Positions 18,214 to 50,616 are shown, counted from the first letter of the stretch. The stretch is 64,000 bases of DNA from an uncultured bacterium (GCA_937948815.1 CALFAM010000052.1:1061-65060), one strand, 5' to 3'. Notes: generated by a model not told the origin, from the sequence alone. Numbers and translations: made by a program.

Positions 18214-20580
18214 CTACAGGATCTCGACGGTCACCGGTCCCTTGATCATCGTCTTGCAGGCGAGGCGGCATTCCCCGGCCTCGAGATCACAGAGGTCTGC
18301 GAGCGTGTCGGTTTCCTCGTCATCGGGGCCTGCCGTCAAATTCTCCAGGCCGGCGAGCACGCGGATCGGATCGCTGCCGCAGATACCCGCGTGGCACTCA
18401 GCATTGACCGCGATGCCATTCGCCTCCGCAACGTCGCAGATGGTCTGCCCAGGGAGCGCCGGGAAGGTCTTGCCCAGGGACGCGAAGGTCACGGATGGGC
18501 CATCTCCGACCGCCGAACTACCTTGAAGCGGCGCAGCACCCACCGGCGCCATGTCTTCCAGGGTACCGGGCTCACCATCGGCCACCACGGGCAGAATGGC
18601 GCTGGTCGAAGCGGGCGACTCGTCGTCGAACACAGCGTCCTCACGCGCACTGTAAACGAAGAGTTGCTGGCCGACCCGGAAGCGATCACCGTGTGCAAGC
18701 TGGACAGCGCCGCGAACCTTCAGGAAGGTACCGTTGACGCTCTTCAGATCCTTGGCCATGGCGATGCCGCCGACGGCCGAGATCGCGAGCTGGCGCCGCG
18801 ACAGCGTACGGTCTCCGGCTTCGAGGGTGACGTCTGGTGACTTGCGTCCCAAGATGATCGAGCGATCCGGCAGCGCGATGCGGCGTACCTCTCTACCTGC
18901 CTGGTCGTAGTGGATCAGGAAGAGACCGTCGTCACCGCTTCCCAGCAGCAGGAACTGTCGCCCCGCACACAGCAGGTCCCCGGGCTCGAGGGCGATCTTG
19001 CGGTGAATCGGCAAGCGCAGGAAGACACCACCCGGCGAGCCATCGTCACGAAGCAGGCAGCCATCGTCCGACAACACCAGCGAGGCATGATGCTCCGCCA
19101 GCAAGGTGTCCTCGGGAAAGGTGATGTCGCAACCACCACGGCCAATGGAGCTCACGGACTGCGCAGCCAGGGGATACTCCTCGCCGACCACGCCACCAGG
19201 GAGCAGCCGCAGCAGGTAGCCAGCCTGCGCCACCGGTTTGCGGCCCGCCGCGAAGCTCTCCTCGGGCAGGCGCTCATCGACCGGCGCTGCCGTGGGTACG
19301 GGGATGAAAGTCGAGTCCGTGGAGGATCCCATCGGCTCGAGATCCTCGGCCTCACCGATCTCGACCGCGATCTCGGTCTTGCCGTCCAACCGCTGCCGAA
19401 TGACTTCCGAGATCAGAACGCCGTCGCGCAGCGCCGCTTTGATATTGCCGCGATGTTTCACTTCGCGGAACGTTGCTGGGTCGGCACCGAAGTCGTCGAC
19501 CTCGAAGTGGCCGGGGCTCAGGAGATCGCCGGCCAGGAAGACATTGGGCTGGCACGTCTCCAGGTAGCGGTTGACCGGAAGACGCTTGCGGCTACGCGCC
19601 CCTCCCGTCACCATCTCGATCCCGACCGAGCTCAGGAGCGTCGTCGGGATGTCCTCGCCAATGCAGGCAATACAGCTCTCTTTCGGGAACTCCAGGTGCG
19701 ACGTCTCCGTGGGCCGACCCGCCATCGTGCGGCGATCGGTGCGGATCGCCAGGTACTCGTTTCGATCTTCCCCGGTGACCACGGCGGCGGGCTCACTGCG
19801 CGGGAAGTAACGAATATTGCCGTTGCCCACGTAGGCTGCGAAGAAGACCTCGGCCAACGCCTTGGAAACCCGCGGCATCTTGTCGCCGCGGTAGCTCCAG
19901 TAGATTGCGGTCGAATCCGACGCGGCAGCCTTGGCGCCCGAAATCGCGATCACCGCCTCGGCGGCGGATGTTCCACCACCGATGACACAGGCAGGGCGGC
20001 CCACATAGTGCTGCGGATCGTCCATGCGAAAGGCGATTCCCTGGGTGTTGCCCGGGACATCGAAACGTCGTGGAACACCACGACCGATCGCGATGACCAC
20101 GTTGCGCGCGAGCAAGGTGACGTCGACGCGCGCCGTGTGATCCCAGCCCCTGACCTCGTAGACGCCGTCGGCTGCGCGCCGTACGAGGCCCGTCAGCTCG
20201 AAGCCGAGGCGGGTCGGCACCGCATGCTGGCGGTAGAGGTCTTTCCAGCTCGCGCACATGTCGTCTTTGTCGATCGGGGCGAAGCGTAGCGACTCGATCA
20301 GCGCGTCGCCTTTCGGGAACTTCATCCGATCCCCGCCGCCGAAGCTGGGCAGGATCAGTTTGTCCTTCGAATAGTCGCGAATTCGCTTCATCAGGTCGTC
20401 GTACTCGACGACCAATACCGACATCCCGAGCTCACGGGCCCGAAACGCAACGGCTGTCCCGGCTGGACCTCCGCCGGCAACCAGGACGTCCAAGACGCCC
20501 GACGCAGGATCGAGACCGCCTCCCGAACCTGCTTCGCTGCCATCACCGTGATTCATAAGACCCTCCGGGCATTGACTCAT
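18214..20580 (-). CDS. Fusion protein: TrxR-like FAD/NAD(P)H oxidoreductase + two FHA domains + ferredoxin-like Cys-rich C-terminal domain
   Basis: GGGPAG and GGGTSAAE dinucleotide folds plus FLAGD. Two FHA signatures (IGRGGCDITF...HASL...GSPGGVFL and LGRKSPDVTL...SRRQ...SVNGTFL). C-terminus CHAGICGS...CDLEAGECRLAC. Start uncertain (ATG 20580 or 20556; track ORF 20667). Confidence 0.7.
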   Translation of the reverse strand: MSQCPEGLMNHGDGSEAGSGGGLDPASGVLDVLVAGGGPAGTAVAFRARELGMSVLVVEYDDLMKRIRDYSKDKLILPSFGGGDRMKFPKGDALIESLRFAPIDKDDMCASWKDLYRQHAVPTRLGFELTGLVRRAADGVYEVRGWDHTARVDVTLLARNVVIAIGRGVPRRFDVPGNTQGIAFRMDDPQHYVGRPACVIGGGTSAAEAVIAISGAKAAASDSTAIYWSYRGDKMPRVSKALAEVFFAAYVGNGNIRYFPRSEPAAVVTGEDRNEYLAIRTDRRTMAGRPTETSHLEFPKESCIACIGEDIPTTLLSSVGIEMVTGGARSRKRLPVNRYLETCQPNVFLAGDLLSPGHFEVDDFGADPATFREVKHRGNIKAALRDGVLISEVIRQRLDGKTEIAVEIGEAEDLEPMGSSTDSTFIPVPTAAPVDERLPEESFAAGRKPVAQAGYLLRLLPGGVVGEEYPLAAQSVSSIGRGGCDITFPEDTLLAEHHASLVLSDDGCLLRDDGSPGGVFLRLPIHRKIALEPGDLLCAGRQFLLLGSGDDGLFLIHYDQAGREVRRIALPDRSIILGRKSPDVTLEAGDRTLSRRQLAISAVGGIAMAKDLKSVNGTFLKVRGAVQLAHGDRFRVGQQLFVYSAREDAVFDDESPASTSAILPVVADGEPGTLEDMAPVGAAPLQGSSAVGDGPSVTFASLGKTFPALPGQTICDVAEANGIAVNAECHAGICGSDPIRVLAGLENLTAGPDDEETDTLADLCDLEAGECRLACKTMIKGPVTVEIL

Positions 20581-21565
20581 TGCCAGCCGAGTCGGCGCGC
20601 AGCACGCGGGCCGCGAGCGGTCCGAAAGACAGCACGTCGCCAGGCTCGATCTCGACCTCACCTGCAATCGGCTTGCCGGCGAGGAATGTGTGGTTGTTGC
20701 TCCCCTGGTCGCGCAGGGTGATCGTCGCTCCGACCTTCATGACCGCATGCCGCCGAGAAATGTGATCACTGGCGAGCCGGATCGCGGCAGTCGCCGTGCG
20801 GCCGATTTGATTGCTGCCGTAGACGAGCGGGAATCGTTCCGGCCCGGTCTCGAAGTCGACCTCCAGAACGAAGACCGTCGGCGAGCCCGGAATGGGCGGC
20901 CTGCGCGCGGCCGGGCCGCGATCGGCCGGGCCGCGATCGGCCGCGCTGAGATCAGCCGAGCTATCCACACCGTGCGCGGCGGCTTCGGGCGCTTCGGGCG
21001 CCAGCGACGCCGCGGGCCGAATGCCGCTGGGCACCGCCAGCGGCAGCTCGTGGAATTGGGTTCGTTCGACCGCTCCAGCCGAGTCGGCTGCCCCGGCTTC
21101 GCCGCCCTCCGGGGTATCCATGCGTTCGATCAGTGCCTGCGGCACGGCGAAAGGCTCGTGCGCCTGCGTCACCGCGATCGGTTCGGTGATCGGCGTGCCA
21201 TCGGCCCCGCCGGGGCGGCTGCTCGTCGGTACCGGCGCTGACCCGTGTCGTTCCCGGGTGCGCAGGAGATCCTGAAAAACGAACTCGTGGCGTCCGGCGA
21301 AGGTAATGACGTGTAGGTGATCGAGACGTTCACGCCCGACGACCGGTACGCCATCGAGCGCGGTGCCATTGGTGCTTCCGAGATCTTCGAGCAGGAATCC
21401 GCCGGTTGCCGAGTCGAAGGCAATTCGCGCGTGATCCTTCGAGATCAGCCCATCGTCGATCACCACGGCGTGGCCACGGTCTCGCCCGACCGTCGCCTCG
21501 TCGTCAACCTCGACCGAGACGCCCGCGAGCGCACCGAGTGGGCTGAACAAGCGTGCGCGCGGCAT
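20543..21565 (-). CDS. Double FHA-domain protein
   Basis: N-terminal FHA (VGRDRGHAVVI...SKDHARI...GSTNGTALDG) and C-terminal FHA (IGRTATAAIRL...SRRHAVM...GSNNHTFL), separated by an Ala/Pro-rich linker. Confidence 0.75.
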   Translation of the reverse strand: MPRARLFSPLGALAGVSVEVDDEATVGRDRGHAVVIDDGLISKDHARIAFDSATGGFLLEDLGSTNGTALDGVPVVGRERLDHLHVITFAGRHEFVFQDLLRTRERHGSAPVPTSSRPGGADGTPITEPIAVTQAHEPFAVPQALIERMDTPEGGEAGAADSAGAVERTQFHELPLAVPSGIRPAASLAPEAPEAAAHGVDSSADLSAADRGPADRGPAARRPPIPGSPTVFVLEVDFETGPERFPLVYGSNQIGRTATAAIRLASDHISRRHAVMKVGATITLRDQGSNNHTFLAGKPIAGEVEIEPGDVLSFGPLAARVLRADSAGNESMPGGSYESR

Positions 21566-21566
21566 C

Positions 21567-23156
21567 TCAGCCCGCTCCCGCGCTGGTGTACAGCAGCATC
21601 TGATTGCTCCGATCCTTGTCCGGGTGGAAGACGTGACAGGTCACACAATCGTTCACGGCCCGTCGGTCGCTGTGACAGTCCTGGCACACTTCGAGCTTCG
21701 GAAGATTCTGGATACTCGCCTGGTCCTCGGCCGGGTCGATCTCGGCCCCTTCCGCGATCGCCTGCTCGATCGGGATCTCGTTGTGGCAGTCGAGGCAGCG
21801 CGCCTGGAGAATGTGTGCGTGGTGATCGAACTCCGCATGGCGAAGGGTTTGTTGGTCGTCCTGCACGCGAACAATGGTCGCATTCTCGACTTCGTGGCAC
21901 TGCTGGCAAGGGCCGGTGAGCGAATCGACCAGAGCGTGAATCGCTTCGGCCTGCTCGCCGGTGACGTGCGCATCCGAGGAGTCGAGGGCGAGTAGGAAGT
22001 CCGTCTCATCGAGGTCGACGAGCGGATCTTCGATCCGGCGGCCCAAGCTTTCGATCATGCTCGTGATGCGCTCCAGCTCCTCCTGAATCGCCGGCTCGGG
22101 GCGACCTCGCAAACCCACGGCCTGCTCCTCGAGGGTGGCCAGGGCCTCGCGATAAAGGTTCTTGACCTCGTGCTCTGGAACGTTGGGAGTAGCTGTCAGC
22201 AAGTCGGCGAGCCCGGCGTCGGGCAGCAGGCGGGTGCGCAGGCGTCGAAGGTTGTGCAACACCCACGGATCGAGGTGATGGAGTGGAGACTTGCGAATCC
22301 GTGAGCCCACGGTTTGCAGCTCGTTGGGGTTGGCGAACCATGACCACCGGGTGCCTACGCCACCCTGCTCGCGAATCGCTTCGAGCGACAGCACCCCGAG
22401 GCTGCCGGAATCGGAGCCTTGTATCGGCAGCCGCGGCGTCGCAGTGCCGATGGTCAGGTGGCAGGCGTCACAGTGGCGATCGAAGCTGATCGGCTCGAAG
22501 TTGCGCCCATCCGGCTGCGCATTGTGGCAGTAGAGACAGGCTTGCTCGACATCATCCAACGCCTCCTGATCCATCAGCTCGGCAATGTGCTCGATGTGCG
22601 CGAAGGTGATGCCCGAACGATCGGGTTCGTCGTTGGCGGCGAATGAAAACTGAGGGTGGTCGTCGTCGAATGAGTCGAAGTGGCATGCCTGACACTGCCC
22701 ATTGCTGACCGTGGTGAGGTCGGCATCGCGCCCGCCATGCTCTCCATGACACGTTGCGCACGGAACCTCGTGGGCGGACGTCTCGACATTCTCGAAATCG
22801 CCCGACCGGTAGAGGTAGTGGGCCGTGAAGGAGTAGGTGCCGATCTCGTCACCCAACTTCTCGTGGCAGGTCTCGCAACGCTCGTTCTGGACGGTGTCGA
22901 AGGCGTCGTGACAGGCCCCGCAGTTGTTCTCGAGCAAGGCATGGCCCGAAGAAAGCTCACCCGTCGAGATCAAGTGCGCGTCGCGATAGAAAAAATCGAC
23001 CAGCAGCCAGCCAGCGGCGAGCATGGCCAAGGCAGCTCCGATCCAGAGAGCACGCCGCCGTCCGGGCGGCAGCACATACGACCGCGCCACGGGCAGACGG
23101 GCCTGCCCGTAGGTCCCTTTCATCTTCGCCTTGGACTTGATTGGCTGTTGCGACAT
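21567..23156 (-). CDS. Membrane-anchored decahaem c-type cytochrome
   Basis: One N-terminal TM helix (LWIGAALAMLAAGWLLVDFF) and ten CxxCH motifs counted in the translation. Confidence 0.8.
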   Translation of the reverse strand: MSQQPIKSKAKMKGTYGQARLPVARSYVLPPGRRRALWIGAALAMLAAGWLLVDFFYRDAHLISTGELSSGHALLENNCGACHDAFDTVQNERCETCHEKLGDEIGTYSFTAHYLYRSGDFENVETSAHEVPCATCHGEHGGRDADLTTVSNGQCQACHFDSFDDDHPQFSFAANDEPDRSGITFAHIEHIAELMDQEALDDVEQACLYCHNAQPDGRNFEPISFDRHCDACHLTIGTATPRLPIQGSDSGSLGVLSLEAIREQGGVGTRWSWFANPNELQTVGSRIRKSPLHHLDPWVLHNLRRLRTRLLPDAGLADLLTATPNVPEHEVKNLYREALATLEEQAVGLRGRPEPAIQEELERITSMIESLGRRIEDPLVDLDETDFLLALDSSDAHVTGEQAEAIHALVDSLTGPCQQCHEVENATIVRVQDDQQTLRHAEFDHHAHILQARCLDCHNEIPIEQAIAEGAEIDPAEDQASIQNLPKLEVCQDCHSDRRAVNDCVTCHVFHPDKDRSNQMLLYTSAGAG

Positions 23157-23226: not shown

Positions 23227-24081
23227 TCAGTAGTACAGAACCGTGAAGACGTGAACCCCGACCAAGACCAACAGGACCAGGGACAAGGGGATATGGAGCA
23301 TCAACCACCAGCGCAGCGGCCACTGCAAGGTGTGATGGGCATCGAGCTCGAGCTTGGTCCGGTAGAGCGTCTCGAGTTGCTCGAGGCGCCCGCGTTCGTC
23401 TTCGGGCAAGAAACCGCGCAGATAGTCGAACGCCCGCAACCGGGAACGGATTCCGCCGGTGACGTCGACGAAGTAGATCCAGCGTCGGTCCGGACCTCCC
23501 AAGGCCGGCGCCACCTCACGCGCGTAGAGCGCGCGGATGGCATCGCCGCAGCTCGCGCTCAGCGCCTCTGCGCGCTCACGCAGATCATCGATCAGAGATG
23601 GGATCCGCTCGTAGAGCGCCTCGGTCGACAAACCCGAGGCCAAGACCCGCGGAATCCAGCGCTGCAGGAGCAAGCCCAGCGCGCCGCTGATCACCGTCCA
23701 CACGCTCAGACCCCAGAGCCACCAGGTGAGGGCGCCTGACGGCAGGCGAAAGCTGCTGTGCATCACCATCAGCAGCAGGAAGAGTGTGCCGCCATAGAGA
23801 TGCAGGCGCAGCCAGCCACGCGCGCTACCGACCCGCAGGCGCGAGGCCAGAGCCGGAAAGCGCCGGCGCATGCCAAAGAGCGCAACAGCCACCATGACCA
23901 CCGCACAGGCAATGCCGTAGGCAATTCCCCATGCGTTGCCAGAAGACAGCTCGCTGAGCGTGATTTGCACGGCGAGCGCGATGACACATAGCGCGACCAA
24001 CGAAAAGAAGACGATCTGTCCAGCCGGCCAACGCCGGCGTCCGGCCGGCGGGTTGCTGCGTTGACTCGTTGCTTTCGGCAT
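23227..24081 (-). CDS. Five-TM membrane protein with two H-x13-H helices (candidate dihaem b-type subunit)
   Basis: Helix HLYGGTLFLLLMVMH and helix HIPLSLVLLVLVGVH each carry His pairs with identical 13-residue spacing. A soluble insert of about 100 aa lies between TM4 and TM5. Confidence 0.55.
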   Translation of the reverse strand: MPKATSQRSNPPAGRRRWPAGQIVFFSLVALCVIALAVQITLSELSSGNAWGIAYGIACAVVMVAVALFGMRRRFPALASRLRVGSARGWLRLHLYGGTLFLLLMVMHSSFRLPSGALTWWLWGLSVWTVISGALGLLLQRWIPRVLASGLSTEALYERIPSLIDDLRERAEALSASCGDAIRALYAREVAPALGGPDRRWIYFVDVTGGIRSRLRAFDYLRGFLPEDERGRLEQLETLYRTKLELDAHHTLQWPLRWWLMLHIPLSLVLLVLVGVHVFTVLYY

Positions 24082-24085
24082 GGTG

Positions 24086-25768
24086 CTAGCGATCCCGTCG
24101 GCGCAGGGCCTGAATCTCGTCCACCGAACCGACCCGATGTAAGCAGCCCTGTGGGCAATTGCTCACACAAGCCGGCTCGTGGCCAGTGGAATGGCAAAGA
24201 TCACATTTGCTGGCCACGAGGCGATCATCGCCTCGGAGGCCGGCCGGGACCGTGTCGTCCGGCCAGATCTCGCCGGTCTCGTGCATGACGATCGCATCGT
24301 AGGGGCAGTTGCTGGCACAGGTTCCGCAGCCGATACAGATGTCGTCGTCGATGTCGATCAGCTCGGCCAGTCCACCACGATGGATCGCGCCCGTGGGACA
24401 ACCGACGAGGCACACAGGATCCTGGCAGTGGTAGCACGACTTGGCGACCAGCAGGTTGTCCAGCTTGCTGCCCTCACGCACGAAGCGCGGGCGCCCGCCG
24501 TGGGTGGCAGCACAGGCACGCACGCAGTCGTCACAGCGGGTGCAGGCTTCGAGATCGATCACCATCATGCTGTTGCCCTGAACCAAGCCGCGGTCGAGGG
24601 CCACCTGCGTGAACTCCGCGTGATCGATGTCGCGTTTGCCGTGTCCCGCTTCGCGAATCCGCGCCAGGGCGCTCTTCCAGAGCTGTTCCTGTAGCCCGGG
24701 CTCGCTTTGCAGGAGTGACCGCACCAGTGATGCCGGTATCTTGACCAGCTCCGAGTACTCGACCGACGTCGCGGTCACCTCCCAGGAATCGACGCCATCG
24801 ATCAGCAGCTCGACCTCGCCGATGGTCATGCCCTTGGAGAGATACGAAACGGTGACGTCACTCTCGCCGAAGCGCTGGGCCAGCTTGACGAAGCCCGAGC
24901 GCACCAAGAAGATCGCGCCCGCTTCCGTTCCTTCCGCGACCACCAGCTCGTCGGGACCACATGACACGAGCTCGACGGAGCGTTCGAGCTCTTTGATCGA
25001 TGCCGGCGTGAGGCCGGCGAAGAGCGGCGTACGCTTGAGCTGGCCCGCCAGGGCACGCTCGCGGTACCGCTCGTCGAGATGTTTCTTGAGACCCGCCGAG
25101 CGGCGCTTCATCAGGCGCAAGGCCGGCACACGAATCTGAATCAGCTGGCACCGTGTCGCAGTGCGGGCCGTGACCGATTGGGGCCAGCCACTCATCGCAC
25201 CGATCTCCCCGAAGATCTCCCCCGGGCCGAGGCGCGTCGTGCCGCTCGAGGGGAGGTCGGTATCCATGGTGGCCAAGAAGGCGATGGTGTGATCGTCCGA
25301 CGAGCGGTTGAGGCTCTGGATGCGGCTGGGCGAAGGCGAGCCGGCGGCCATCGTCGGCAGAAGCTGGGTGCGCTCGACGCCGTCGGGATTCGAGAGCTCG
25401 ATCATCGAGGTCCGCTCGCGCTCGAAGATCGGGGCGGTATCGTTGCCGCCCTGGAGCGCGCCGAGATCAATCTCGACTTCACCTCGGACGACCACGAAGG
25501 CCACATTCAGATACGAACCCTGCTCGAACAGCGCGGCATTCTCCCGCCAGGCGACCACGGAGACATCCGGGCTGATGCGTTCGAGAAAGGTGTCCGGATA
25601 GTCGCTGAAGATGTCGTACCGGCGCAGCTCGGCCGCGGTCAGCCGGTCGGAGATCGCCTCGATTCCGGTGGTATCGCCGTAGGACGACCAGCGATCCCGG
25701 TACATCTCCATGCGCCGGATCGTCGTCTTACTGACGCTGCCGCCTTGTTCGTTCATCGCATTGCTCAT
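24086..25768 (-). CDS. Two cyclic-nucleotide-binding domains fused to a four-cluster 4Fe-4S (DmsB/NrfC-like) domain; no signal peptide
   Basis: CNB signatures GEIFGEIGAM and GMTIGEVELL. Cys groups CTRCDDCVRAC, CYHCQDPVCLVGCP, CIGCGTCASNCP and CDLCHSTGHEPACVSNCP. Start overlaps the upstream stop (25765-25768). Confidence 0.8.
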   Translation of the reverse strand: MSNAMNEQGGSVSKTTIRRMEMYRDRWSSYGDTTGIEAISDRLTAAELRRYDIFSDYPDTFLERISPDVSVVAWRENAALFEQGSYLNVAFVVVRGEVEIDLGALQGGNDTAPIFERERTSMIELSNPDGVERTQLLPTMAAGSPSPSRIQSLNRSSDDHTIAFLATMDTDLPSSGTTRLGPGEIFGEIGAMSGWPQSVTARTATRCQLIQIRVPALRLMKRRSAGLKKHLDERYRERALAGQLKRTPLFAGLTPASIKELERSVELVSCGPDELVVAEGTEAGAIFLVRSGFVKLAQRFGESDVTVSYLSKGMTIGEVELLIDGVDSWEVTATSVEYSELVKIPASLVRSLLQSEPGLQEQLWKSALARIREAGHGKRDIDHAEFTQVALDRGLVQGNSMMVIDLEACTRCDDCVRACAATHGGRPRFVREGSKLDNLLVAKSCYHCQDPVCLVGCPTGAIHRGGLAELIDIDDDICIGCGTCASNCPYDAIVMHETGEIWPDDTVPAGLRGDDRLVASKCDLCHSTGHEPACVSNCPQGCLHRVGSVDEIQALRRRDR

Positions 25769-28137
25769 CTGTTGCCTCCCGGCGTCTTGGCAGCGTCGTC
25801 TACGGCCTCGTACAGCCGTCTCAGCCGCTCCTCGAGCAGGAGGAGGAGCGACTCGATCGAAGTCTCTTCGTCGACTTCCGGAAAGGGTGGCAAGGCCAGA
25901 TCGTCGACGACAGCACCACCCTGGCCGGCGGCCCCGAACGGTGCTTGCCCCACCTGCGCGCCCGCGCCGCCCGCGTCACTCCCGCGAGAACGCCCACGGG
26001 AGCGCGCATTGGGCCGCGCGCGTGGCGTTTGCGGCCGCGCGATCCGCCCTGTGGCGCTGAGCGGCTCGGTCAGTGGCCCGGTCGACGCCGTGGTCGCTGC
26101 GCCATCGCCGCCGATGACACGCCGGCTGGCGAGACGAGCACGCTGAACCGCCGGAACCGGCCCCCGGCTGCCGAGTGCCGCGCCAAAGGCCGTCGTGATC
26201 TGGCTCGCGGTCGTCGAGTCCTGCTCCCAGTGGTTGATCTCGACCATGCCCTGGGCGTAGTCGAAGTCCTTGCCCGAGGGATGGCCCGCGGAGATCAGGC
26301 GCGTCTCGGTGATGTAGTGGCAGCCGGTACAGACCTCGGCACGGACGCTGAGGTCACGCAGCGCCCGCATGCCCTGCCCGAGGGCTTGCCGGTAGCCGGG
26401 CCGGTCGTCACCGAGATCCGCGTCGCCTTCCTGGTGCGACTCGAGATAGTCGGCCGCGGGTCCATGGCAGCTCTCACAGGCCACGCCGTCGGCGACTTCT
26501 TGGCGCTTCTCGGCGGTCACGGCCGTGCCATGACAGTCCATGCAGATGTGGTCGCCACGGGCCATTTGTGAGCGCTTGAGGCCGTAGAGCGTCGCGATCT
26601 TGACGTTCTCCGGATCCTGCTCGAAGAAGGGATCCGCGGACTGATAGTGCGCGTCATCGAACCACCAGGCGGTCTGGGTCTGGTGACGATGACAGCCCGT
26701 GCAAGTCTCGGGGCCGATGGTGGCGTGAGACGACGGCGGGCGCACGGCGCGCTTGAACGTTCCGGTCGCCGGCACGCCCGGATCCACTTCGACTCGCGGG
26801 CCGGCCGACGTGCTGCTCGCGAGGGCCCCGCCCTCGGCAGTCGTGTCCGCGTCGGCCTCTGCTGCGCCGGGCGGGAGGTTCCCGTCTGCAACACCAGGAG
26901 TTGTAGCGCCTGGCGCGAGGGTGCCATCGGCCAGCTGCTCTTCAGGATCGTCTTCGTCCTCGTCCGCCAACAGCACCTCTTCCGTGCCGAGAATGACGCC
27001 GTCGAGGCTCGCCAACTGCTGTCCGTCATGGCTGTCGAGGAAGGTGCGCGCCGAGACCCCGATCGCTTCCGCGGCCGTCAGCATGGCCTGGCGCTGGTTC
27101 GGCCGCACGTCGAGCGCACGCACGGTCGCCACCATGGACGCCAGCTCGGGAAGATCCAGGCGCTGTCCCAAGGCACGGACATCACGCAGGGTCTTGCGAA
27201 CCCGCCGCGCCGCGGCCTTGGCGAAGACACCCTTCTCTGTGGCCTCGGCCATCGCGCGCAAGCTGTGCTCGAGGGCGAGGGCGCGGCCGAGCACGTAGAC
27301 CACCCGTTTGTGGGTCATCGGTCGCTCGGGGTTCTCGCCCCCACCATCGCCGAGAAACGACTCGAGAAAATTGTGACGAATCTCGCCACTGGTCCAGGCG
27401 ACGAGCTCGAAGTCACCGCTGCCGGTCCCGTGGCCGCCGACATTGACCAGGTCCTCATCGGGCACCATGTGGCACCGGAAGCAGCTCGACATCAGCGCGT
27501 AGAAGTTGTCCGAGGACCGCCGCATCCCCGCCGCGATGCTTTCCTCGATGCGCTGTCGGCGATGCTCGGGCGGCTCGTTGGTGTGATCGAGCCCTTTGCC
27601 ACCGTAGTCGTTGTGCACGTCGATCCAGTCACGGGCGGCACCGTGGCACGACTCGCACGACACGCCAGAGATGGCACGGAGCTCGTCGCGCTGGACTGTC
27701 GCGGTGTAGTGACAACTCAGGCACAGACTGTCCCGCTTGAGCAGCCGGAAGCCCATTCGTTCGGCGATTTCCTCAGCCGCCGCCTTGCGGTGCAGGGTGC
27801 GAAATCCGGTCTGATGGGTCGTCTTTCGCCACACCTCGAAGGCCGACGCATGGCACTCGCCGCACGACTCCGAATTGACGATCTTCTCCGGATCGGGAGC
27901 CCCTTCACGCAGCAGACGAAGCGCCAGATCAGACGATGCCGGATCGTCTTGCGCCAGGGCCATGCTGCTTGCGAGGGCCAACCACAAGAACGGACACAAG
28001 CACAGCCACCAGGACCGCCACGACACCGGCCAGGCCCTACGTGCCCTGCTGATCGGGTACTCACCCACGGTGGTATTCCCACCGTGGGGCTCGTGGCATT
28101 GCGGCATTATTCGCGCCCCAAGATATCGTCTTGGCAA
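25765..28137 (-). CDS. Secreted octahaem c-type cytochrome (two 4-haem halves) with low-complexity C-terminal tail
   Basis: Hydrophobic signal (WWLCLCPFLWLALASSMALA). Eight CxxCH motifs arranged 4 + 4 and separated by an Ala/Gly/Pro-rich linker. Start uncertain (28137, 28107 or GTG 28068). Confidence 0.8.
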   Translation of the reverse strand: MPRRYLGARIMPQCHEPHGGNTTVGEYPISRARRAWPVSWRSWWLCLCPFLWLALASSMALAQDDPASSDLALRLLREGAPDPEKIVNSESCGECHASAFEVWRKTTHQTGFRTLHRKAAAEEIAERMGFRLLKRDSLCLSCHYTATVQRDELRAISGVSCESCHGAARDWIDVHNDYGGKGLDHTNEPPEHRRQRIEESIAAGMRRSSDNFYALMSSCFRCHMVPDEDLVNVGGHGTGSGDFELVAWTSGEIRHNFLESFLGDGGGENPERPMTHKRVVYVLGRALALEHSLRAMAEATEKGVFAKAAARRVRKTLRDVRALGQRLDLPELASMVATVRALDVRPNQRQAMLTAAEAIGVSARTFLDSHDGQQLASLDGVILGTEEVLLADEDEDDPEEQLADGTLAPGATTPGVADGNLPPGAAEADADTTAEGGALASSTSAGPRVEVDPGVPATGTFKRAVRPPSSHATIGPETCTGCHRHQTQTAWWFDDAHYQSADPFFEQDPENVKIATLYGLKRSQMARGDHICMDCHGTAVTAEKRQEVADGVACESCHGPAADYLESHQEGDADLGDDRPGYRQALGQGMRALRDLSVRAEVCTGCHYITETRLISAGHPSGKDFDYAQGMVEINHWEQDSTTASQITTAFGAALGSRGPVPAVQRARLASRRVIGGDGAATTASTGPLTEPLSATGRIARPQTPRARPNARSRGRSRGSDAGGAGAQVGQAPFGAAGQGGAVVDDLALPPFPEVDEETSIESLLLLLEERLRRLYEAVDDAAKTPGGNR

Positions 28138-28181: not shown

Positions 28182-29786
28182 CTAGAATTTGGTCAGCAAT
28201 TCCAGCCGGCCACCGTAGAGCGTCTCGTCTCCGAGACCGGCCAACCCGCTCAGGTGACCCACGAAGCCATCGACCACCAGGACGAGCCGACGGCCGATGG
28301 CCGTCTGGAATCGGGCGGTGGCCGCAAACGCGTCCGCGACGTCGTTCTCCAGACCAAAGCGCGCACCAAACTCGACGATCACCTGCTTACGGGTGTGATC
28401 GAAGAACATCTGATAGCCGACCGCACCACCGACCACATCACGCGCCGTGCTCGAGAGCGCCGCGCCATAGCTGCCGAGACCGACCGCAGCGAAGTTGATT
28501 CCCGCCCGTCCGAGAGGCCCACCGGTGGCCGGGCCACGCGCGGCCGACGAAAAGGTGTCGACGGCCAAGAAGTTGTTCACGTAGAATAGGTTATGCGTGT
28601 GAACCGGCGTCCAAGAAAGCTCGCTGAAGAGCAGCGCGCCGTCCGTACTGAATGCGGTTTCGTCATCGAGAGCGAAGGATCCGAGCACGCGGAACGAGGC
28701 GTTCATCTTGCCGATCCGCTGCACCGCGCTGACGCCGAAGGCTGCCAGGTCCCCGACCAGCGGATTGTCTGACTGTACGTAGACCAGATCGGCGTCGATG
28801 GTCGAACGCCGAACGTCGGTCGACGTCAGCAGCGCAAAGAGCTGCCCGCTGGTGTCCTCGGGGTTGGTGCCGCGCAGGGAGCCTTCGGCGTCCGACAGAT
28901 CGATGCCACCGCGGTGGACGTTGTCCCACGCCAGGAAAAGCGTGGCCCGAAAGTTGGACGTATTCTTCGGCAGAAGCGTGTTGCGGGTCAGGCCGATGCC
29001 ATCGAGGGTGTCTTGGATCAACAGCCCTTCCTGGAAAAACATCGGCTGCCTGCCGATCGAGAAGCCCACATCCAAGGAACCATGGTCTTCGAGATCGAGA
29101 TTGGGAAAGATCTCCCCGAACTCACCCTCGAAGAACAGCACCTCGACATCGATGTCGAACTCATCCCGAAACTCGCCGTCGAGCGCGGGGTCAGGCGATT
29201 CGAATACGTAGCCGCTGAAGCGTCCGCTGCGATCGAAGTTGCGGAAGCCAACGACCAGGCGTTCGGTGCCACTCAAAAAGAGGTTGAGGAAAAGGTCGAG
29301 CCGGTTCGCCCACTCGGTGGTGCGGTTCTCGCTGCCACCAGGGGTGAAGGTCTGGAGACCCGTGCGCAGGTTGCCGAAGGCGAGCAACGACGGCTGCCAG
29401 ACGGCCCCCGTGGGCAGCTTGTAGCCAGGATGAAGCGTTCCCGTGCCGAGAAACGGCTCGCCAAGCTCGAGAATCGGCTTCGGCCGCTTCGGGAAGCCCT
29501 CGAGTTGAAGGGGCAGGGCGACATCGCTCAGGCGACTACCGTGGCCACCGCCATGACCATCGTGCCCGTCTCCGGCGCCGTGGCCATCTCCGTGCTCGTC
29601 GTGATCTTCCCCGGCGTGGTCGTGGCCGTCGTCCGACTCGTGAACGGCATCTTCAGGGTCGGCCGCTTTCGCGGACGGCGCCGCCTTCGCGCTTGGCGAA
29701 GAAGCGACCGCAGTCACCGGCATGGCAGCCAACAGCAACGCACCCAGGAGGGTGCGGCTCAAGAGCATCGCGCGCTTGCTGTCCAT
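28182..29786 (-). CDS. Putative outer-membrane beta-barrel protein with N-terminal His/Asp-rich tract
   Basis: ATG at 29786 lies 4 nt after the upstream stop. Signal peptide MDSKRAMLLSRTLLGALLLAAMPVTAVA. His/Asp tract at residues 49-82. Gly/aromatic-rich body ending ...GRLELLTKF, with the terminal Phe typical of OMPs. Confidence 0.55.
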   Translation of the reverse strand: MDSKRAMLLSRTLLGALLLAAMPVTAVASSPSAKAAPSAKAADPEDAVHESDDGHDHAGEDHDEHGDGHGAGDGHDGHGGGHGSRLSDVALPLQLEGFPKRPKPILELGEPFLGTGTLHPGYKLPTGAVWQPSLLAFGNLRTGLQTFTPGGSENRTTEWANRLDLFLNLFLSGTERLVVGFRNFDRSGRFSGYVFESPDPALDGEFRDEFDIDVEVLFFEGEFGEIFPNLDLEDHGSLDVGFSIGRQPMFFQEGLLIQDTLDGIGLTRNTLLPKNTSNFRATLFLAWDNVHRGGIDLSDAEGSLRGTNPEDTSGQLFALLTSTDVRRSTIDADLVYVQSDNPLVGDLAAFGVSAVQRIGKMNASFRVLGSFALDDETAFSTDGALLFSELSWTPVHTHNLFYVNNFLAVDTFSSAARGPATGGPLGRAGINFAAVGLGSYGAALSSTARDVVGGAVGYQMFFDHTRKQVIVEFGARFGLENDVADAFAATARFQTAIGRRLVLVVDGFVGHLSGLAGLGDETLYGGRLELLTKF

Positions 29787-29790
29787 GGCG

Positions 29791-31659
29791 CTACTCGGAG
29801 GCGCCGGCAATGGCGGTCGCGGGGTGGGCGGAACCCTCGGCACCACTGTGGAGATCGATCTCGAGATCTCGTTCCCACAGCACCAGATGCCCTGCGACCA
29901 CCCGATCGGCAATCTCGCGGGCGCTCAGGCCATAGTCGAACCCGACCCCGGCGATCTCGTGTACCAGGTTGACCGGCACCATGCCGGCGATCAGCTCGAA
30001 CCGCGCACGGTATGGCCCCGCACCGCTCAGCGCCGATGCCGGAACCCGGTACCGGGCAAGCCGCTTGCCACCGGGTTCGATGTTCTGCTTGTGCTTGCGC
30101 GCGCCTGCCGGTCGCCCGGTCAGAATGGTCGAACGCGTCGAGGGCCGCAGGAAGGGCAGCGGATCTGGTGAGTAGTTCACCGCCAGAACCTGCTCCCGCT
30201 CCCCGCCGCGCACCATGCGCGTGACGAAGCGTGACTGCAAGCTGAAGAGCTGCTTGTCGAGGGGTAGCTCGCCGTTGTGCACATAGAGCGAATGCGTGTC
30301 GCGCAGGTCGCCATTGGGATCGAGATCGCCCGAGACAAAGACGACCTCGTCGTTGCGGTCGGTCACGGTGACCCGTACGAACACCAGGCGTTCCGCGTCG
30401 AAGCCGGTCGGCACGCCGTGTCCGGTGGTGGCATTGCGCACTTCGGCGGCAATCACCATCCCCTTTCGTGCATCGGCCCGAACCACCTCGATCTCGCCGA
30501 ACTGGTAGCCGGCCTGGAGGACCTTCTTGCGCTGGACATCGGCCTTGGCGAGCAGGGCCCGGTTCGCCTCGATGATGTCGCGCGCATCGTAGCGATCATC
30601 GGCCGCGCGCCATTTCTCCGGAAAATCGTACGGCTCGTCGGCCTTGGCCGCCTGATCCTCGAATGTGTCGGTGCCCCATCCCGCTTCCCAATCAAAGGTC
30701 AGCCACTCGCGGATGGTCGCCAGCTCGGATGCCTTGGTGTTGTGCGGGAAGATCCCCGGGTGAATGACCGAGTAGTCGGGGCCGATGAACATGTGGTCCG
30801 TGCGCTTCCGGACTACCGTCGGGCGGCCGCCAACCACTGCGGCGGGGGCTTGGGCGTAGCCGGAGACCACGCCAGGCTCGAGGCCCATGTGGCAGTCCTG
30901 GCACGACGTGCCTTCCTTGGCCGCTGGCGTGTTCTTGAACTCGCTGAAGGCCTCTTCCAGCCGGAAGCCGTTGACCAGGTTGACGTCGTGGCAAGTCGCA
31001 CAGAGACCGGAAGTCGTGATCTGGAAGAACGGTCGCGCTTCCGTGTGGATCGCTCGCCCGGCCTTGCCTCGCTCGGTGTTGACCCGGTACTCGCCGCTTT
31101 CGAGCACGCGCTCGAGCTCTTCGTTGCCCGCTGGGCCGTAGACCGGCTCGAAAAGATCACCCTCGACGATGGCCAGGCGCCCGCTCAGCTTGCCATAGCT
31201 CTTGTTGAGCCGGTGACAAACGATGCAGGTCACGCCTTCGCGCGAGGTCGGATGGCGATCCATGTTGCTCATGAACTCTGGCTCGCCAAGGTTCATGCCG
31301 ACCGGCGTATGGCAACGGATGCAGAAGTCTCCGTTCGTCCCATTGGTCAGCTTGAGCACGGTTCCATGCATGGCATTGAAGACCGGGCTCATCTGCGCGT
31401 AGGCATGCGGCGACACGGACCAGGCTTCGAAGTGGTCCGGATGACACGTCGCGCAGGTATTGGCCGACGGGAACCGATTCTCCAGGAACAGCGCTTCGTG
31501 CTCTTGATCGGCGGACAGAGCCTTTGCCGCGGTCTCCTCGGACGGCGGGTCCTCCGTCGCGAAAACGAGTGCAGCGGTGGCCAGCCATGCACCTGCCACG
31601 GCAAGCGTCCCGAAGATGGCCGGGCGCACCATTTCGGTCGATATCCACAGAAATCTCAT
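29791..31659 (-). CDS. Secreted pentahaem c-type cytochrome with large non-haem C-terminal domain
   Basis: ATG at 31659 preceded by GAGGAGG (complement of 31668-31674). Signal-like AIFGTLAVAGAWLATAALVFA. Five CxxCH motifs in the first 270 aa. Confidence 0.8.
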   Translation of the reverse strand: MRFLWISTEMVRPAIFGTLAVAGAWLATAALVFATEDPPSEETAAKALSADQEHEALFLENRFPSANTCATCHPDHFEAWSVSPHAYAQMSPVFNAMHGTVLKLTNGTNGDFCIRCHTPVGMNLGEPEFMSNMDRHPTSREGVTCIVCHRLNKSYGKLSGRLAIVEGDLFEPVYGPAGNEELERVLESGEYRVNTERGKAGRAIHTEARPFFQITTSGLCATCHDVNLVNGFRLEEAFSEFKNTPAAKEGTSCQDCHMGLEPGVVSGYAQAPAAVVGGRPTVVRKRTDHMFIGPDYSVIHPGIFPHNTKASELATIREWLTFDWEAGWGTDTFEDQAAKADEPYDFPEKWRAADDRYDARDIIEANRALLAKADVQRKKVLQAGYQFGEIEVVRADARKGMVIAAEVRNATTGHGVPTGFDAERLVFVRVTVTDRNDEVVFVSGDLDPNGDLRDTHSLYVHNGELPLDKQLFSLQSRFVTRMVRGGEREQVLAVNYSPDPLPFLRPSTRSTILTGRPAGARKHKQNIEPGGKRLARYRVPASALSGAGPYRARFELIAGMVPVNLVHEIAGVGFDYGLSAREIADRVVAGHLVLWERDLEIDLHSGAEGSAHPATAIAGASE

Positions 31660-31935
31660 TGCAACAAACCTCCTCAAAGGCTACATACGCCTCTCAAGTC
31701 CCCAGTACGCAATGAAACCAAGCGATGATCGACCGAACCGAAATGACAATGAAAGCAGTCCTGCCAGGGAGTTTACTACGACCTATAGCGTTGTGACAAA
31801 AAGTCATCTGCCTTCTGGGCTGGAGGCACGAATGAACGGTACGATGCAGGCCATGAACGACAGGGTCGCGCTCTGACACGTTTCCTCGCCATCATTGGCG
31901 TTCTGACGATCTCGCTCTCCGCGATCTTCGTTCGC

Positions 31936-50531: not shown

Positions 50532-50616
50532 CGCAGCCGTGAGGTGAATCGCCACCGGGCCTCGTGAGCCGGACAGAGCCAACTATCTGGCGGCACGTTT
50601 CGATTCGGAGAGACCC

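Follow-up and report, generated by a model that had tools for sequence, protein, structure and literature searches.

Through analysis of a 64,000-nucleotide stretch of DNA from an uncultured bacterium (hereafter the window), the gene g8 has been identified, the product of which joins a flavoprotein module, two FHA domains and a ferredoxin-like tail in one chain. With a probability of roughly one half, this protein feeds electrons from the cytoplasmic side, as an input subunit, into a conserved transmembrane electron-export complex, with the electron path and the FHA/kinase gating set out below. Because this architecture is found in an operon with an iron-sulfur (FeS) wire, a putative haem membrane protein and multihaem cytochromes, electrons probably enter an export route through g8 in a switchable manner, and we infer a quinone-independent conduit in which g8 is the NAD(P)H input module, regulated by phosphorylation.

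In the proposed path, NAD(P)H would reduce the FAD of the g8 module, which has the TrxR fold and is FNR-like; NADPH is favoured as the donor because of a YRG motif similar to that of Bdr. The FAD would then reduce the flexibly tethered [2Fe-2S] domain of the same protein (putatively a Cys3Asp site), from which electrons may pass to the HycB-like poly-[4Fe-4S] protein g4. This protein is expected to dock on g5, to which it is fused in some species, and two bis-His haems of g5 would carry the electrons across the inner membrane to the anchored 10-haem cytochrome g6. In the window only, the path may continue through g3 (8 haems), the putative porin g2 and g1 (5 haems), and the complex encoded there probably spans the whole cell envelope. 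The tandem FHA pair of g8 and the co-translated protein g7 would form a phosphothreonine-dependent docking or gating device: a Hanks kinase may phosphorylate two Thr motifs of the g7 linker, possibly also the cytoplasmic tails of g6 or g4, and the marks would be read by FHA2 of g8 and the FHA domains of g7, so that phosphorylation would switch or recruit g8 by letting the NAD(P)H module dock onto the membrane wire or come off it. Domains, conserved residues, synteny, g4-g5 fusions, kinase adjacency and Thr motifs are observed in the sequences; the cofactors, the g5 haems, the FHA ligands, the physiological acceptor and the direction of electron flow are inferred.

Location and domain organization of g8

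The g8 reading frame encodes 788 residues if translation starts at the ATG at 20580, and 780 residues if it starts at the ATG at 20556. The latter is probably the true start, since a GGAGG box lies 5 nt upstream of it; the database copy of the protein (P0001) has 780 residues. The residue numbers used here count from the 20580 ATG (Table 1).

Table 1. Coordinates of g8, its domains and the adjoining cluster genes in the window
Feature	Position	Strand	Characteristics
g8	18214..20580	-	Pyr_redox-FHA-FHA-Fer2 protein; stop codon 18214-18216
g8 flavoprotein module (aa 29-400)	19381..20496	-	GGGPAG (FAD Rossmann), GGGTSAAE (NAD(P)H Rossmann), W228-x-Y-R231-G, FLAGD
g8 linker 1 (aa 401-451)	19228..19380	-	mostly disordered, unconserved; pLDDT <50 at aa 417-451
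g8 FHA1 (aa 452-549)	18934..19227	-	degenerate; Gly480-Arg481 and His498 kept, Ala495 for Ser, Gly517 for Asn (window copy)
g8 FHA2 (aa 552-645)	18646..18927	-	canonical; Gln597 in the usual His place
g8 linker 2 (aa 646-692)	18505..18645	-	mostly disordered tether to the ferredoxin domain; pLDDT <50 at aa 654-691
g8 Fer2 domain (aa 693-788)	18217..18504	-	AECHAGICGSDP ... CRLAC; ligand candidates C729, C734, D737, C775
g7	20543..21565	-	stand-alone 2xFHA protein, 340 aa; both FHA canonical; Pfam E 2.1e-27
g6	21567..23156	-	10-haem c-type cytochrome; one N-terminal TM helix, 10 CXXCH, conserved cytoplasmic tail KG[T/S]F..D..L.V...Y..P
g5	23227..24081	-	5-TM membrane protein, no Pfam family; H94 and H108 (TM3), H263 and H277 (TM5) invariant
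g4	24086..25768	-	cytoplasmic; two cNMP-binding-like domains and a HycB/NrfC/FdnH-type multi-[4Fe-4S] domain
g3	25765..28137	-	secreted 8-haem cytochrome; internal duplication of a 4-haem c554-like module
g2	28182..29786	-	secreted haem-free protein, ~530 aa; signal peptide, conserved C-terminal GGRxExxxKF (outer-membrane beta-barrel signal)
g1	29791..31677	-	5-haem cytochrome; c554/NapC-NirT-like N-terminal part, related to PDB 5ze8; C-terminal domain ~350 aa

The four-part architecture described in an earlier note on this DNA is borne out by Pfam, which places Pyr_redox_2 at residues 31-354 (E 2.2e-18), two FHA stretches, with E 1.3e-13, at 458-545 (via Yop-YscD_cpl/FHA) and 576-637, and Fer2 at 703-779 (E 3.9e-5; 23.9 bits against a cut-off of 21). 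The AlphaFold2 model contains confidently predicted domains, with a pLDDT above 90 for the FHA pair, separated by disordered linkers. The same note had named the motifs GGGPAG, GGGTSAAE and FLAGD (residues 36-41, 201-208 and 348-352) and the cysteine pattern C-x4-C ... C-x6-C-x3-C, all of which are present. The architecture is kept in more than 120 full-length homologues of 52-89% identity, which takes these features far beyond chance matches, and it persists at 28-37% identity; g8 represents a conserved family across about 10 phyla and no one-off. Literature searches turned up just two mentions in passing of FHA-cytochrome fusions, and no experimental study of a member of the g8 family.

FHA domains, the partner protein g7 and neighbouring kinases

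The second FHA domain of g8 fits the phosphothreonine-binding type (PF00498) and is a predicted reader: G578, R579, S594, R595 and N616 occur in 83/83 homologues, and the His position is occupied by His in 65/83 and by Gln, as in the window copy, in 18/83. The earlier expectation of two phosphothreonine-reading domains holds for FHA2 and not for FHA1. Of the 83 homologues, 68 have the Arg of FHA1, 59 the Ser and only 20 the Asn, and the window copy lacks the full phosphothreonine-binding residue set of PF00498 while keeping the fold. The test proposed for the reader function, conservation of the phosphopeptide-binding residues, accordingly gives a split outcome, these being kept in FHA2 apart from the Gln and partly missing (Ser and Asn) in FHA1.

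The preceding double-FHA gene had been reported to overlap g8; the overlap of g7 and g8 amounts to 14 nt, or 38 nt with the 20580 start. In its linker g7 carries two Thr residues, T133 (codon 21167-21169) and T169 (codon 21059-21061), within the motif [KR]-T-x-hydrophobic-[DE]. They are near-invariant (60/61 and 57/61, respectively) in linkers that are otherwise unalignable, and the residue at +3 is Asp or Glu in 42/60 (T133) and 32/57 (T169) sequences. Directly downstream of g8, a Hanks kinase is encoded in 28 of 62 loci from several phyla, adjacency being defined as a kinase ORF start within 1.5 kb. In the window no kinase flanks the operon, the nearest lying at 47688-50582. Taken across the family, Ser/Thr phosphorylation is a plausible input to the g8 system. 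Several features of the window itself speak against the gating proposed above: FHA1 without Ser and Asn, Gln for His in FHA2, His at +3 in both g7 motifs and the missing flanking kinase.

The same electron path could operate with FHA domains that are phosphorylation-independent structural adaptors, giving constitutive assembly like the FHA-like domains of YscD in the T3SS, and no kinase switch. Such a role would suit the family-wide degeneracy of FHA1, which also matches the Yop-YscD_cpl model, the deviation of the g7 motifs in the window at +3, and the fact that about half of the loci, the window included, have no adjacent kinase. It is hard to square with the Gly-Arg, Ser-Arg and Asn residues of FHA2 retained throughout the family, with two canonical FHA domains in g7, with Thr residues preserved inside unalignable linkers, and with a kinase adjacency far above that expected for unrelated genes. 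We therefore regard purely structural adaptors as unlikely, while giving them some weight.

At the sequence level, FHA2 of g8 and the FHA domains of g7 match GarA/OdhI, FhaA and FhaB/FipA, but their NCBIfam scores are far below the cut-offs. For the GarA/OdhI equivalog NF041660, g8 reaches 19.7 bits and g7 37 bits against a cut-off of 200, and the architecture differs as well. The hallmark of GarA/OdhI is an N-terminal ETTS phospho-motif. As in GarA, the FHA domains of g7 are accompanied by a disordered segment with conserved Thr motifs, in g7 putative phospho-acceptors. GarA, however, is a single-FHA inhibitor acting in trans on enzymes of the TCA cycle, whereas in the g8/g7 system the FHA domains form part of a redox enzyme and of its dedicated 2xFHA partner.

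Organization and conservation of the cytochrome cluster

Three multihaem cytochrome genes (g1, g3 and g6, with 5, 8 and 10 CXXCH motifs) lie upstream of g8 on the same strand. Homologues of g8 might have been found mainly away from cytochrome genes, but the reverse is the case: g4-g5-g6-g7, that is, the FeS, 5-TM, cytochrome and 2xFHA genes in this order, precede g8 in 43 of the 54 informative loci, defined as those with at least 7 kb of upstream sequence. The cytochrome context claimed for the window is strongly conserved in the family, and the g4-g8 order is conserved in Acidobacteriota, Bacteroidota, Ignavibacteriota, Zixibacteria, KSB1, Nitrospirota, Eisenbacteria and others. At loci L028, L035 and L067, g8 is present without a cytochrome within 10 kb, an observation that speaks against the export reading.

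In g5, two His pairs, each 14 residues apart on two like-oriented TM helices, are invariant in 38 homologues. This is the pattern of dihaem cytochromes b (two His pairs on two TM helices with a spacing of about 13-14 residues), and because of the four invariant His on TM3 and TM5 the protein is a putative dihaem b subunit, haem binding being suggested by the His pattern alone. Comparisons of g5 with known cytochrome b families gave 16.4 bits for Ni_hydr_CYTB (cut-off 30.1) and E 0.88 for DUF4405; the cyt-b561 and DUF4405 matches in Pfam are far below threshold, and the confidently predicted g5 model has no Foldseek match in the PDB at E 0.001 or better. The FeS domain of g4 is homologous to the electron wires HycB3, HycB4, HycB, NrfC and FdnH, and its cNMP-binding domains lack the phosphate-binding Arg. 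Fusions of g4 and g5 occur in loci L006, L027 and L053. The g2 product is a putative porin partner of the cytochromes; no homology to MtrB or OmbB was obtained for it.

The density of regulatory domains (four FHA, two cNMP-like and frequently an adjacent kinase) is unusual, and the position of the FHA pair between two redox domains makes conformational coupling plausible. The main role of g8 might thus be that of a redox sensor or signalling scaffold, in which the state of FAD and [2Fe-2S] reports on the NAD(P)H pool or the wire, alters the FHA contacts with g7 and the kinase, and tunes the cytochrome complex. Yet the components from flavoprotein to multihaem cytochromes make up a complete chain in conserved order, the HycB-type wire of g4 suits throughput, and the catalytic motifs show no variation for either dinucleotide. 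A predominantly sensory role is on this evidence improbable.

As to the direction of flow, our own reasoning is that electrons leaving NAD(P)H (about -320 mV) for c-type haems would move downhill and along the membrane potential, whereas inward electrons would oppose this potential and reduction of NAD(P)+ from c-type haems would be strongly uphill. With flow reversed, donors in the periplasm or outside the cell, such as Fe(II) or a cathode, would charge the cytochromes; the electrons would move on via g5 and g4 to the ferredoxin domain and the FAD of g8, which would reduce NAD(P)+ or some other acceptor in the cytoplasm. TrxR-type FNRs can in principle run either way. FHA-bearing decahaem proteins are listed in Gallionellaceae, and the Fe(II) oxidiser Ferrigenium straubiae expresses a similar cytochrome/5-TM/[4Fe-4S] trio, which is considered there in connection with Fe(II) oxidation (bioRxiv 10.64898/2026.01.22.701106). 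Against this stand the absence of any coupling-ion or bifurcation module from the cluster, host lineages that are mostly heterotrophs and not known Fe(II) oxidisers, and the fact that no g8-like flavoprotein has been reported in the Ferrigenium cluster. Inward flow is therefore judged distinctly improbable, and export is the direction adopted here.

Ferredoxin-like tail

The cysteines of the g8 tail are arranged as C729-x4-C734 ... C764-x6-C771-x3-C775. The description of a Cys-rich tail stands for C729, C734 and C775, which together with D737 are conserved in 81-82 of 83 homologues (D737 in 82/83); it does not extend to C764 (70/83) and C771 (51/83), which vary. Asp737 occupies the canonical third-ligand position of plant-type [2Fe-2S] ferredoxins, and the four-Cys pattern C-x4-C-x2-C-x(about 29)-C is consequently not present in g8. 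The candidate ligand set is Cys729, Cys734, Asp737 and Cys775 (Cys3Asp). The domain passes the gathering threshold of PF00111 and shows the beta-grasp Fer2 fold, and the family profile matches the PDB ferredoxin 9i2a with E 1.4e-10. Points against a cluster are the borderline Pfam score of the window copy, the lack of the third canonical Cys and the poor model quality of the cluster loop (aa 727-732).

The CxxGxCGSD motif of g8, with Asp for the third Cys, is also that of E. coli SdhB (CREGVCGSD, within residues 54-77), in which Asp63 is a cluster ligand (structure 1NEK). The domain context differs, the last Cys follows after 37 residues in g8 and after 11 in SdhB, and ligation in g8 is a prediction. 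In NqrF of Na+-NQR and in fusions of the phthalate-dioxygenase-reductase type, electrons pass from NAD(P)H to a flavin, to a fused plant-type [2Fe-2S] domain and on to a membrane or partner redox chain. The logic proposed for g8 is the same, but those enzymes have the plant-type FNR fold instead of the TrxR fold, four Cys ligands and no FHA domain.

Flavoprotein module

The FAD and NADPH motifs GGGPAG and GGGTSAAE, in which GxGxxG and GxGxxA are intact, are invariant in the family, like W228-x-Y-R231-G. Foldseek aligns the module with TrxR-fold proteins at E 1e-16 to 1e-21, and the nearest structures, by PDB profile and fold matches, are Bdr (7a76) and TrxR-type FNRs. From these matches the module is assigned to the low-Mr TrxR fold, resembling TrxR-type ferredoxin-NADP reductases and Bdr and not thioredoxin reductase. 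The designation TrxR-like, given in the earlier note, is correct for the fold only: there is no CxxC before the second Rossmann motif, where the region reads GIAFRMDDPQHYVGRPACVIGGG. Outside the g8 family the next relatives of the flavin module are fusions of Fer4 with Pyr_redox, and the flavin clade therefore habitually pairs with FeS carriers.

TrxR-type FNRs are homodimers with Fd:NADP+ activity and a C-terminal extension that stacks a His or an aromatic side chain against the flavin. Those of B. subtilis (YumC, 3lzw), B. cereus (FNR1/2, 6gar/6gas) and Chlorobaculum tepidum (3ab1) are among the top fold and sequence matches to g8, with which they share the low-Mr TrxR fold, two Rossmann domains and the absence of CxxC. 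They reduce a small Fe-S protein, whereas g8 carries its own ferredoxin domain in cis, beyond two FHA domains and two disordered tethers. Identity is only 16-18%, and a conserved insert specific to the g8 family (DDLMKRIRDY...FGGGD) is absent from these FNRs. Bdr/YpdA (7a76, 7apr) is the best structural and profile match, and its YRG after the NADPH Rossmann strand is shared with the W-x-Y-R-G of g8; the context of Bdr, however, is thiol metabolism, and that of g8 electron transfer.

Two enzyme identities were rejected for g8, namely low-Mr thioredoxin reductase (TIGR01292, 15.7 bits against 343) and Bdr/YpdA (TIGR04018, 48.4 bits against 339.9). A thiol/disulfide reductase of the thioredoxin or bacillithiol type, or an unrelated oxidoreductase adjoining the cytochromes by chance, is very improbable: although the best NCBIfam and PDB matches bear the names YpdA/Bdr and thioredoxin reductase, the scores are far below the cut-offs, the redox-active CxxC of TrxR is missing, the Bdr Cys (GGGPCG) is replaced (GGGP(G/A)G in the family), and the cytochrome synteny is conserved.

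Comparison with other electron-transfer systems

An architecturally matching arrangement is the 'NHC' cluster of Ferrigenium straubiae, in which a 1-TM nonahaem cytochrome with a cytosolic FHA domain is encoded with a 5-TM protein and a [4Fe-4S] protein (bioRxiv 10.64898/2026.01.22.701106). This trio has an FHA domain at the membrane face where those of the g8 system would act. Its likeness to g4, g5 and g6 is one of architecture, as described; in Ferrigenium the cytochrome itself carries the FHA domain, and the description includes no g8-like flavoprotein.

The Hmc, Tmc, DsrMKJOP and CbcL/ImcH systems of sulfate reducers and Geobacter contain the same parts, namely a periplasmic multihaem cytochrome, a haem-b-type membrane subunit (putative in g5) and a cytoplasmic FeS protein, although neither homology nor a fold match was detected between g5 and the NarI, HdrE or NrfD types. 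Their input is quinol or HdrD-like chemistry, whereas a dedicated NAD(P)H flavoprotein is proposed for the g8 cluster. With the Mtr and Pcc porin-cytochrome conduits the window would share a porin, putatively g2, next to cytochromes. FHA/kinase regulation is not known for any of these systems (Hmc, Tmc, DsrMKJOP, CbcL/ImcH, Mtr, Pcc).

In the eukaryotic and bacterial NADPH oxidase and ferric reductase (NOX/FRE) enzymes, electrons of NADPH pass through FAD and two bis-His haems (His about 14 residues apart, on TM3 and TM5) to an outside acceptor, and the transfer is gated by phosphorylation. The resemblance of the g8 cluster is a functional analogy only: no Ferric_reduct, FAD_binding_8 or NAD_binding_6 match and no NOX/FRE homology was detected, and the cluster, unlike NOX/FRE, is multi-subunit with FeS clusters and c-type cytochromes interposed. 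By analogy it is possible, and suggested here tentatively, that the cluster is a bacterial multi-subunit counterpart of NADPH oxidase or ferric reductase, quinone-independent and kinase-gated, made up of an FHA-docked flavoprotein-ferredoxin drawing directly on cytoplasmic NADPH, a 4Fe-4S wire, an unrecognised dihaem membrane fold for the passage across the inner membrane, and multihaem cytochromes and a porin for the exit from the cell. Since export would dissipate the membrane potential and anabolic reductant, such a system would be on only at a Ser/Thr-kinase signal. It could serve to reduce or acquire metals, to dump redox equivalents, or to produce a reductive or oxidative burst outside the cell.

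Significance

The known respiratory electron exit routes in bacteria start at the quinone pool, as with CymA, ImcH/CbcL and the Ndh2-DMK chain of Gram-positives, and none is known to be under Ser/Thr phosphorylation control. The conserved operon described here seems to provide a direct link from NAD(P)H to periplasmic and outer cytochromes, in about 10 phyla that dominate sediments, soils and animal-associated communities. On the narrowest view, g8 is a natural flavoprotein-ferredoxin fusion with a conserved putative Cys3Asp [2Fe-2S] site and phospho-reader domains within its tether. The full cluster is carried by a cultured host, Sulfidibacter corallicola M133, and the idea is therefore directly testable. 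If true, it would mean a new inner-membrane electron gate, by way of a new membrane subunit, and the first electron transport controlled by FHA domains and a kinase, and the cluster would be a marker of overlooked electron export in uncultured Acidobacteriota, Bacteroidota, Ignavibacteriota and others.

Gene and domain organization of g8

The target gene, g8, closes a run of eight co-directional genes (g1 to g8) that overlap or are separated by small gaps. Its open reading frame translates into 788 residues, numbered here from the ATG at 20580. The true start is probably the second ATG, at 20556, since a GGAGG box lies 5 nt ahead of it and the database copy of the protein has 780 residues. Pfam analysis of the product revealed (i) a Pyr_redox_2 domain (residues 31-354, E 2.2e-18); (ii) two FHA stretches (458-545 and 576-637, E 1.3e-13); (iii) a Fer2 domain (703-779, E 3.9e-5) barely over the gathering score. 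The family profile matches the solved ferredoxin 9i2a (E 1.4e-10) as well as GarA/OdhI-type FHA domains. The AlphaFold2 model, built with a 34-sequence alignment, contains four confident bodies: flavoprotein (29-400), FHA1 (452-549), FHA2 (552-645) and ferredoxin domain (693-788), joined by disordered tethers (417-451 and 654-691), with a pLDDT above 90 for the FHA pair. These domains and bodies bear out the earlier note, which had described a flavoprotein with two FHA domains and a ferredoxin-like tail; every motif that it quoted is present in the translation, and the double-FHA gene that it placed upstream (g7) does overlap the start of g8.

The flavin module

The fold of the flavin module is that of the low-Mr thioredoxin reductases (TrxR), and the closest structures identified with Foldseek are the bacillithiol disulfide reductase Bdr and the TrxR-type ferredoxin-NADP+ reductases (FNRs) of Bacillus and Chlorobaculum (E 1e-17 to 1e-21, 15-20% identity), matched by a sequence profile as well. 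The module possesses neither the TrxR CxxC nor the Bdr cysteine, with GGGPAG found instead, and every NCBIfam score is far under the curated cut-off; the proposal that g8 acts as a thiol reductase, of the thioredoxin or the bacillithiol type, is rejected on these grounds. The TrxR-like module described earlier thus stands as a fold but not as an identity. Residue conservation in g8 was counted in 83 homologues from species-representative genomes. Both dinucleotide motifs are invariant in this set, as is W228-x-Y-R231-G, which aligns with the YRG of NADPH-dependent Bdr. Because of the fold, the absent cysteines, the invariant motifs and the YRG alignment, we infer that the module is FNR-like and oxidises NAD(P)H, with a probable dependence on NADPH.

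A conserved CxxC, C303-I-A-C306 (window 19663-19674, minus strand), is located within a predicted beta-strand that corresponds to the TrxR 'VAIGH' strand; its role is probably structural and not that of a redox disulfide.

FHA domains and the ferredoxin-like tail of g8

In FHA2, residues G578, R579, S594, R595 and N616 are present in 83/83 homologues; the structural His is replaced by Gln in 18/83, the window copy among them. FHA1 retains the fold, with the Arg kept in 68/83, the Ser in 59/83 and the Asn in just 20/83, and the window copy carries Ala and Gly at the Ser and Asn positions. The expectation of the earlier note that the FHA domains read phosphothreonine is therefore matched by the binding residues of FHA2, bar the His/Gln exchange, but not by those of FHA1. 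Judged by these residues, g8 pairs one canonical phosphothreonine reader with one degenerate FHA domain. A rival explanation regards the FHA domains as phospho-independent adaptors.

Within the tail, C729 (82/83), C734 (82/83) and C775 (81/83) are near-invariant, as is Asp737 (82/83) at the canonical third-ligand position. The motif AEChxGxCGSD is the same as in E. coli SdhB residues 54-77, where the Asp of CGSD ligates the [2Fe-2S] cluster. Since C764 (70/83) and C771 (51/83) vary, and given the SdhB precedent, the most parsimonious ligand set is Cys3Asp, predicted to consist of C729, C734, Asp737 and C775. This revises the five-Cys pattern first noticed, which included all of the last three Cys.

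Organization of the cytochrome operon

Features of the operon, its flanks and the local kinase in the window
Feature	Description	Coordinates	Strand
g1	5-haem cytochrome	29791-31677	-
g2	secreted haem-free protein	28182-29786	-
g3	8-haem cytochrome	25765-28137	-
g4	two cNMP-like domains and FeS domain	24086-25768	-
g5	5-TM protein without Pfam family	23227-24081	-
g6	10-haem cytochrome, one N-terminal TM helix	21567-23156	-
g7	2xFHA protein, 340 aa	20543-21565	-
g8	target	18214-20580	-
g9	FG-GAP/ASPIC-UnbV repeat gene, next downstream of g8	16328-18067	-
Other flank	FG-GAP/ASPIC-UnbV repeat gene	32844-36038	+
Kinase	Hanks-type, 964 aa, long TPR array	47688-50582	-

The C-terminal domain of g4 is homologous to the electron wires HycB3, HycB4, HycB, NrfC and FdnH (E down to 2e-17). 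In three other loci (L006, L027 and L053) g4 and g5 form one polypeptide, a physical link between the FeS wire and the membrane subunit g5 at its cytoplasmic face. In both cNMP-binding-like domains of g4 (residues ~180-200, FGEIGAMSGWPQSVTA, and ~315-335, GEVELL...W..TATS) the phosphate-binding Arg known from CAP/PKA cassettes is missing, as it is across 52 homologues, so that binding of a cyclic nucleotide is doubtful; another ligand is possible.

The g5 family, annotated as hypothetical everywhere, is represented in the window by a protein of 284 residues with a long cytoplasmic helical insert (145-255). H94, H108, H263 and H277 are invariant in 38 homologues and form pairs spaced by 14 residues on two helices of the same direction (positive-inside rule), an arrangement classically associated with two stacked bis-His haems, making g5 a putative haem-binding protein. 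No known fold was assigned: a Foldseek search with the pLDDT-90 AlphaFold model returned no PDB match, and a permissive Pfam search gave just sub-threshold hints of cyt-b561 and DUF4405.

The C-terminal GGRxExxxKF of g2, found in 23 homologues, is an outer-membrane beta-barrel signal and suggests that g2 is a putative beta-barrel that may be a porin partner of g1 and g3. Residues 84-125 of g2, following the signal peptide, are rich in His, Asp and Gly (9 His in 40 aa) and may bind metal; comparable stretches are present in L008, L016 and L039, not in every homologue. The g3 cytochrome contains two copies of a 4-haem c554-like module, related by internal duplication (81-259 versus 468-638, 25% identity, E 4.6e-14), with a long Ala/Asp/Glu-rich linker between them.

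FG-GAP/ASPIC-UnbV repeat genes are located on both operon flanks. There is no terminator-like site between g8 and g9, and g9 was ruled out as a conserved cluster member, with just one weak match in other loci. Scans for promoters and terminators gave nothing informative except for a single promoter-like site ahead of g1.

Family, hosts and synteny

An exhaustive HMMER search of 1.84 billion representative proteins with the flavin module as query found only 78 at E <= 1e-30, the full-length ones nearly all of 700-830 aa. The flavoprotein-FHA-Fer2 order is still present in relatives at 28-37% identity, and just outside the family lie Fer4 and Pyr_redox fusions. By sequence comparison, this is a small, distinct family with an old architecture. 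Among 185,579 species-representative genomes scanned, 201 relatives of g8 were found, with hosts that include Acidobacteriota (Thermoanaerobaculia, Holophagae, Acanthopleuribacteraceae), Bacteroidota/Rhodothermales, Ignavibacteriota/Chlorobi, Zixibacteria, KSB1, Calditrichaceae, Nitrospirota and Eisenbacteria; Sulfidibacter corallicola M133 is the sole isolate.

Among the 54 loci whose upstream sequence extends for 7 kb or more, 43 have same-strand g4, g5, g6 and g7 ahead of g8, which excludes chance adjacency to cytochromes and upholds the cytochrome context pointed out before. The remaining 11/54 carry mostly a partial set or a rearranged copy, and in three loci no cytochrome is encoded within 10 kb of g8.

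In a KSB1 genome (L004/L019, 7928-9823) the 2xFHA gene is separated from g8 by an inserted gene for a 631-aa Tricorn/PD40-like beta-propeller. Outside the cluster, the window (10295-11617 and 13844-16237, both plus strand) and the S. corallicola locus L001 (12408-14501 and 16869-17939) have in common a CarboxypepD_reg-repeat protein and a proline racemase, suggesting that the window stems from a related lineage of Acidobacteriota.

Kinases and candidate FHA ligands

In 28/62 loci, from several phyla, a Hanks-type Ser/Thr kinase open reading frame starts at most 1.5 kb downstream of g8. The sole kinase detected in the window is 27 kb from g8 and is, locally, the single candidate for writing the marks that the FHA domains of the operon would read. 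In L003, a 'Deltaproteobacteria' MAG, the cluster-adjacent kinase is followed by a gene for an FHA-GGDEF protein (14511-15488), a hint of a possible connection with c-di-GMP signalling.

The linker of g7 is unalignable save for two short motifs, [KR]-T-x-hydrophobic-[DE]...P, whose Thr is near-invariant (T133 in 60/61, T169 in 57/61). Many FHA domains prefer motifs of the pT-x-x-D type. Asp or Glu is found at +3 of T133 in 42/60 and of T169 in 32/57; the window copy has His at +3 in both. The cytoplasmic tail of g6 (KG-[T/S]-F-x-D, moderately conserved, Thr or Ser in 39/57) and the conserved K-T-M-L-R-R at the g4 N-terminus are weaker ligand candidates than the g7 motifs. No conserved Thr was found in the linkers of g8 itself.

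Proposed mechanism and comparison with known systems

In the proposed mechanism, NAD(P)H would reduce the FAD of g8, and the tethered Cys3Asp [2Fe-2S] domain would ferry electrons to the g4 wire, from which they would cross the membrane via the two g5 haems to g6 and, in the organism of the window, continue to g3, g2 and g1. Depending on phosphothreonine marks written by a kinase, the g8 FHA pair together with g7 would attach or detach the input module. Since export wastes proton-motive force and reductant, tight gating would be explained. A sensor role for g8 is a rival explanation. Another rival has electrons flow inward, to NAD(P)+, a path that would be uphill in potential and against the membrane potential; outward flow, downhill in potential and along the membrane potential, is the thermodynamically sensible direction. 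We give the composite of this electron path, outward direction and phospho-gating about even odds: its architecture, conservation, synteny, fusions, kinase adjacency and Thr motifs are observed, and we infer cofactors, direction, ligands and physiology.

By homology, the flavin module is nearest to the TrxR-type FNRs and Bdr; the other nearest relatives are GarA-type FHA domains and plant-type ferredoxins with an SdhB-like Asp. By logic, g8 resembles the flavin-[2Fe-2S] input modules of the NqrF and PDR type, and the whole system resembles the Hmc, Tmc and Dsr transmembrane complexes and the Mtr and Pcc conduits; NADPH oxidase is an analogy only. To our knowledge, none of these systems combines the parts of the g8 cluster or is regulated by FHA domains or kinases.

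In Ferrigenium straubiae, a nonahaem cytochrome that has a single TM helix and a cytosolic FHA domain has been described beside a 5-TM and a [4Fe-4S] protein; its authors regarded FHA domains with multihaem cytochromes as previously unreported and left the function open (2026 preprint, bioRxiv 10.64898/2026.01.22.701106). A Gallionellaceae pangenome table (2023) contains an entry for a 10-haem 'forkhead-associated protein'. Likened by description, both cases lend support to a link between FHA domains and membrane complexes.

Full-text searches of the literature returned no account of the g8 protein family; the feature is genuine and conserved, and it is uncharacterised. It is assembled from known parts and located in what may be a new kind of electron-export system, and the cultured host, Sulfidibacter corallicola M133, makes this system experimentally tractable.
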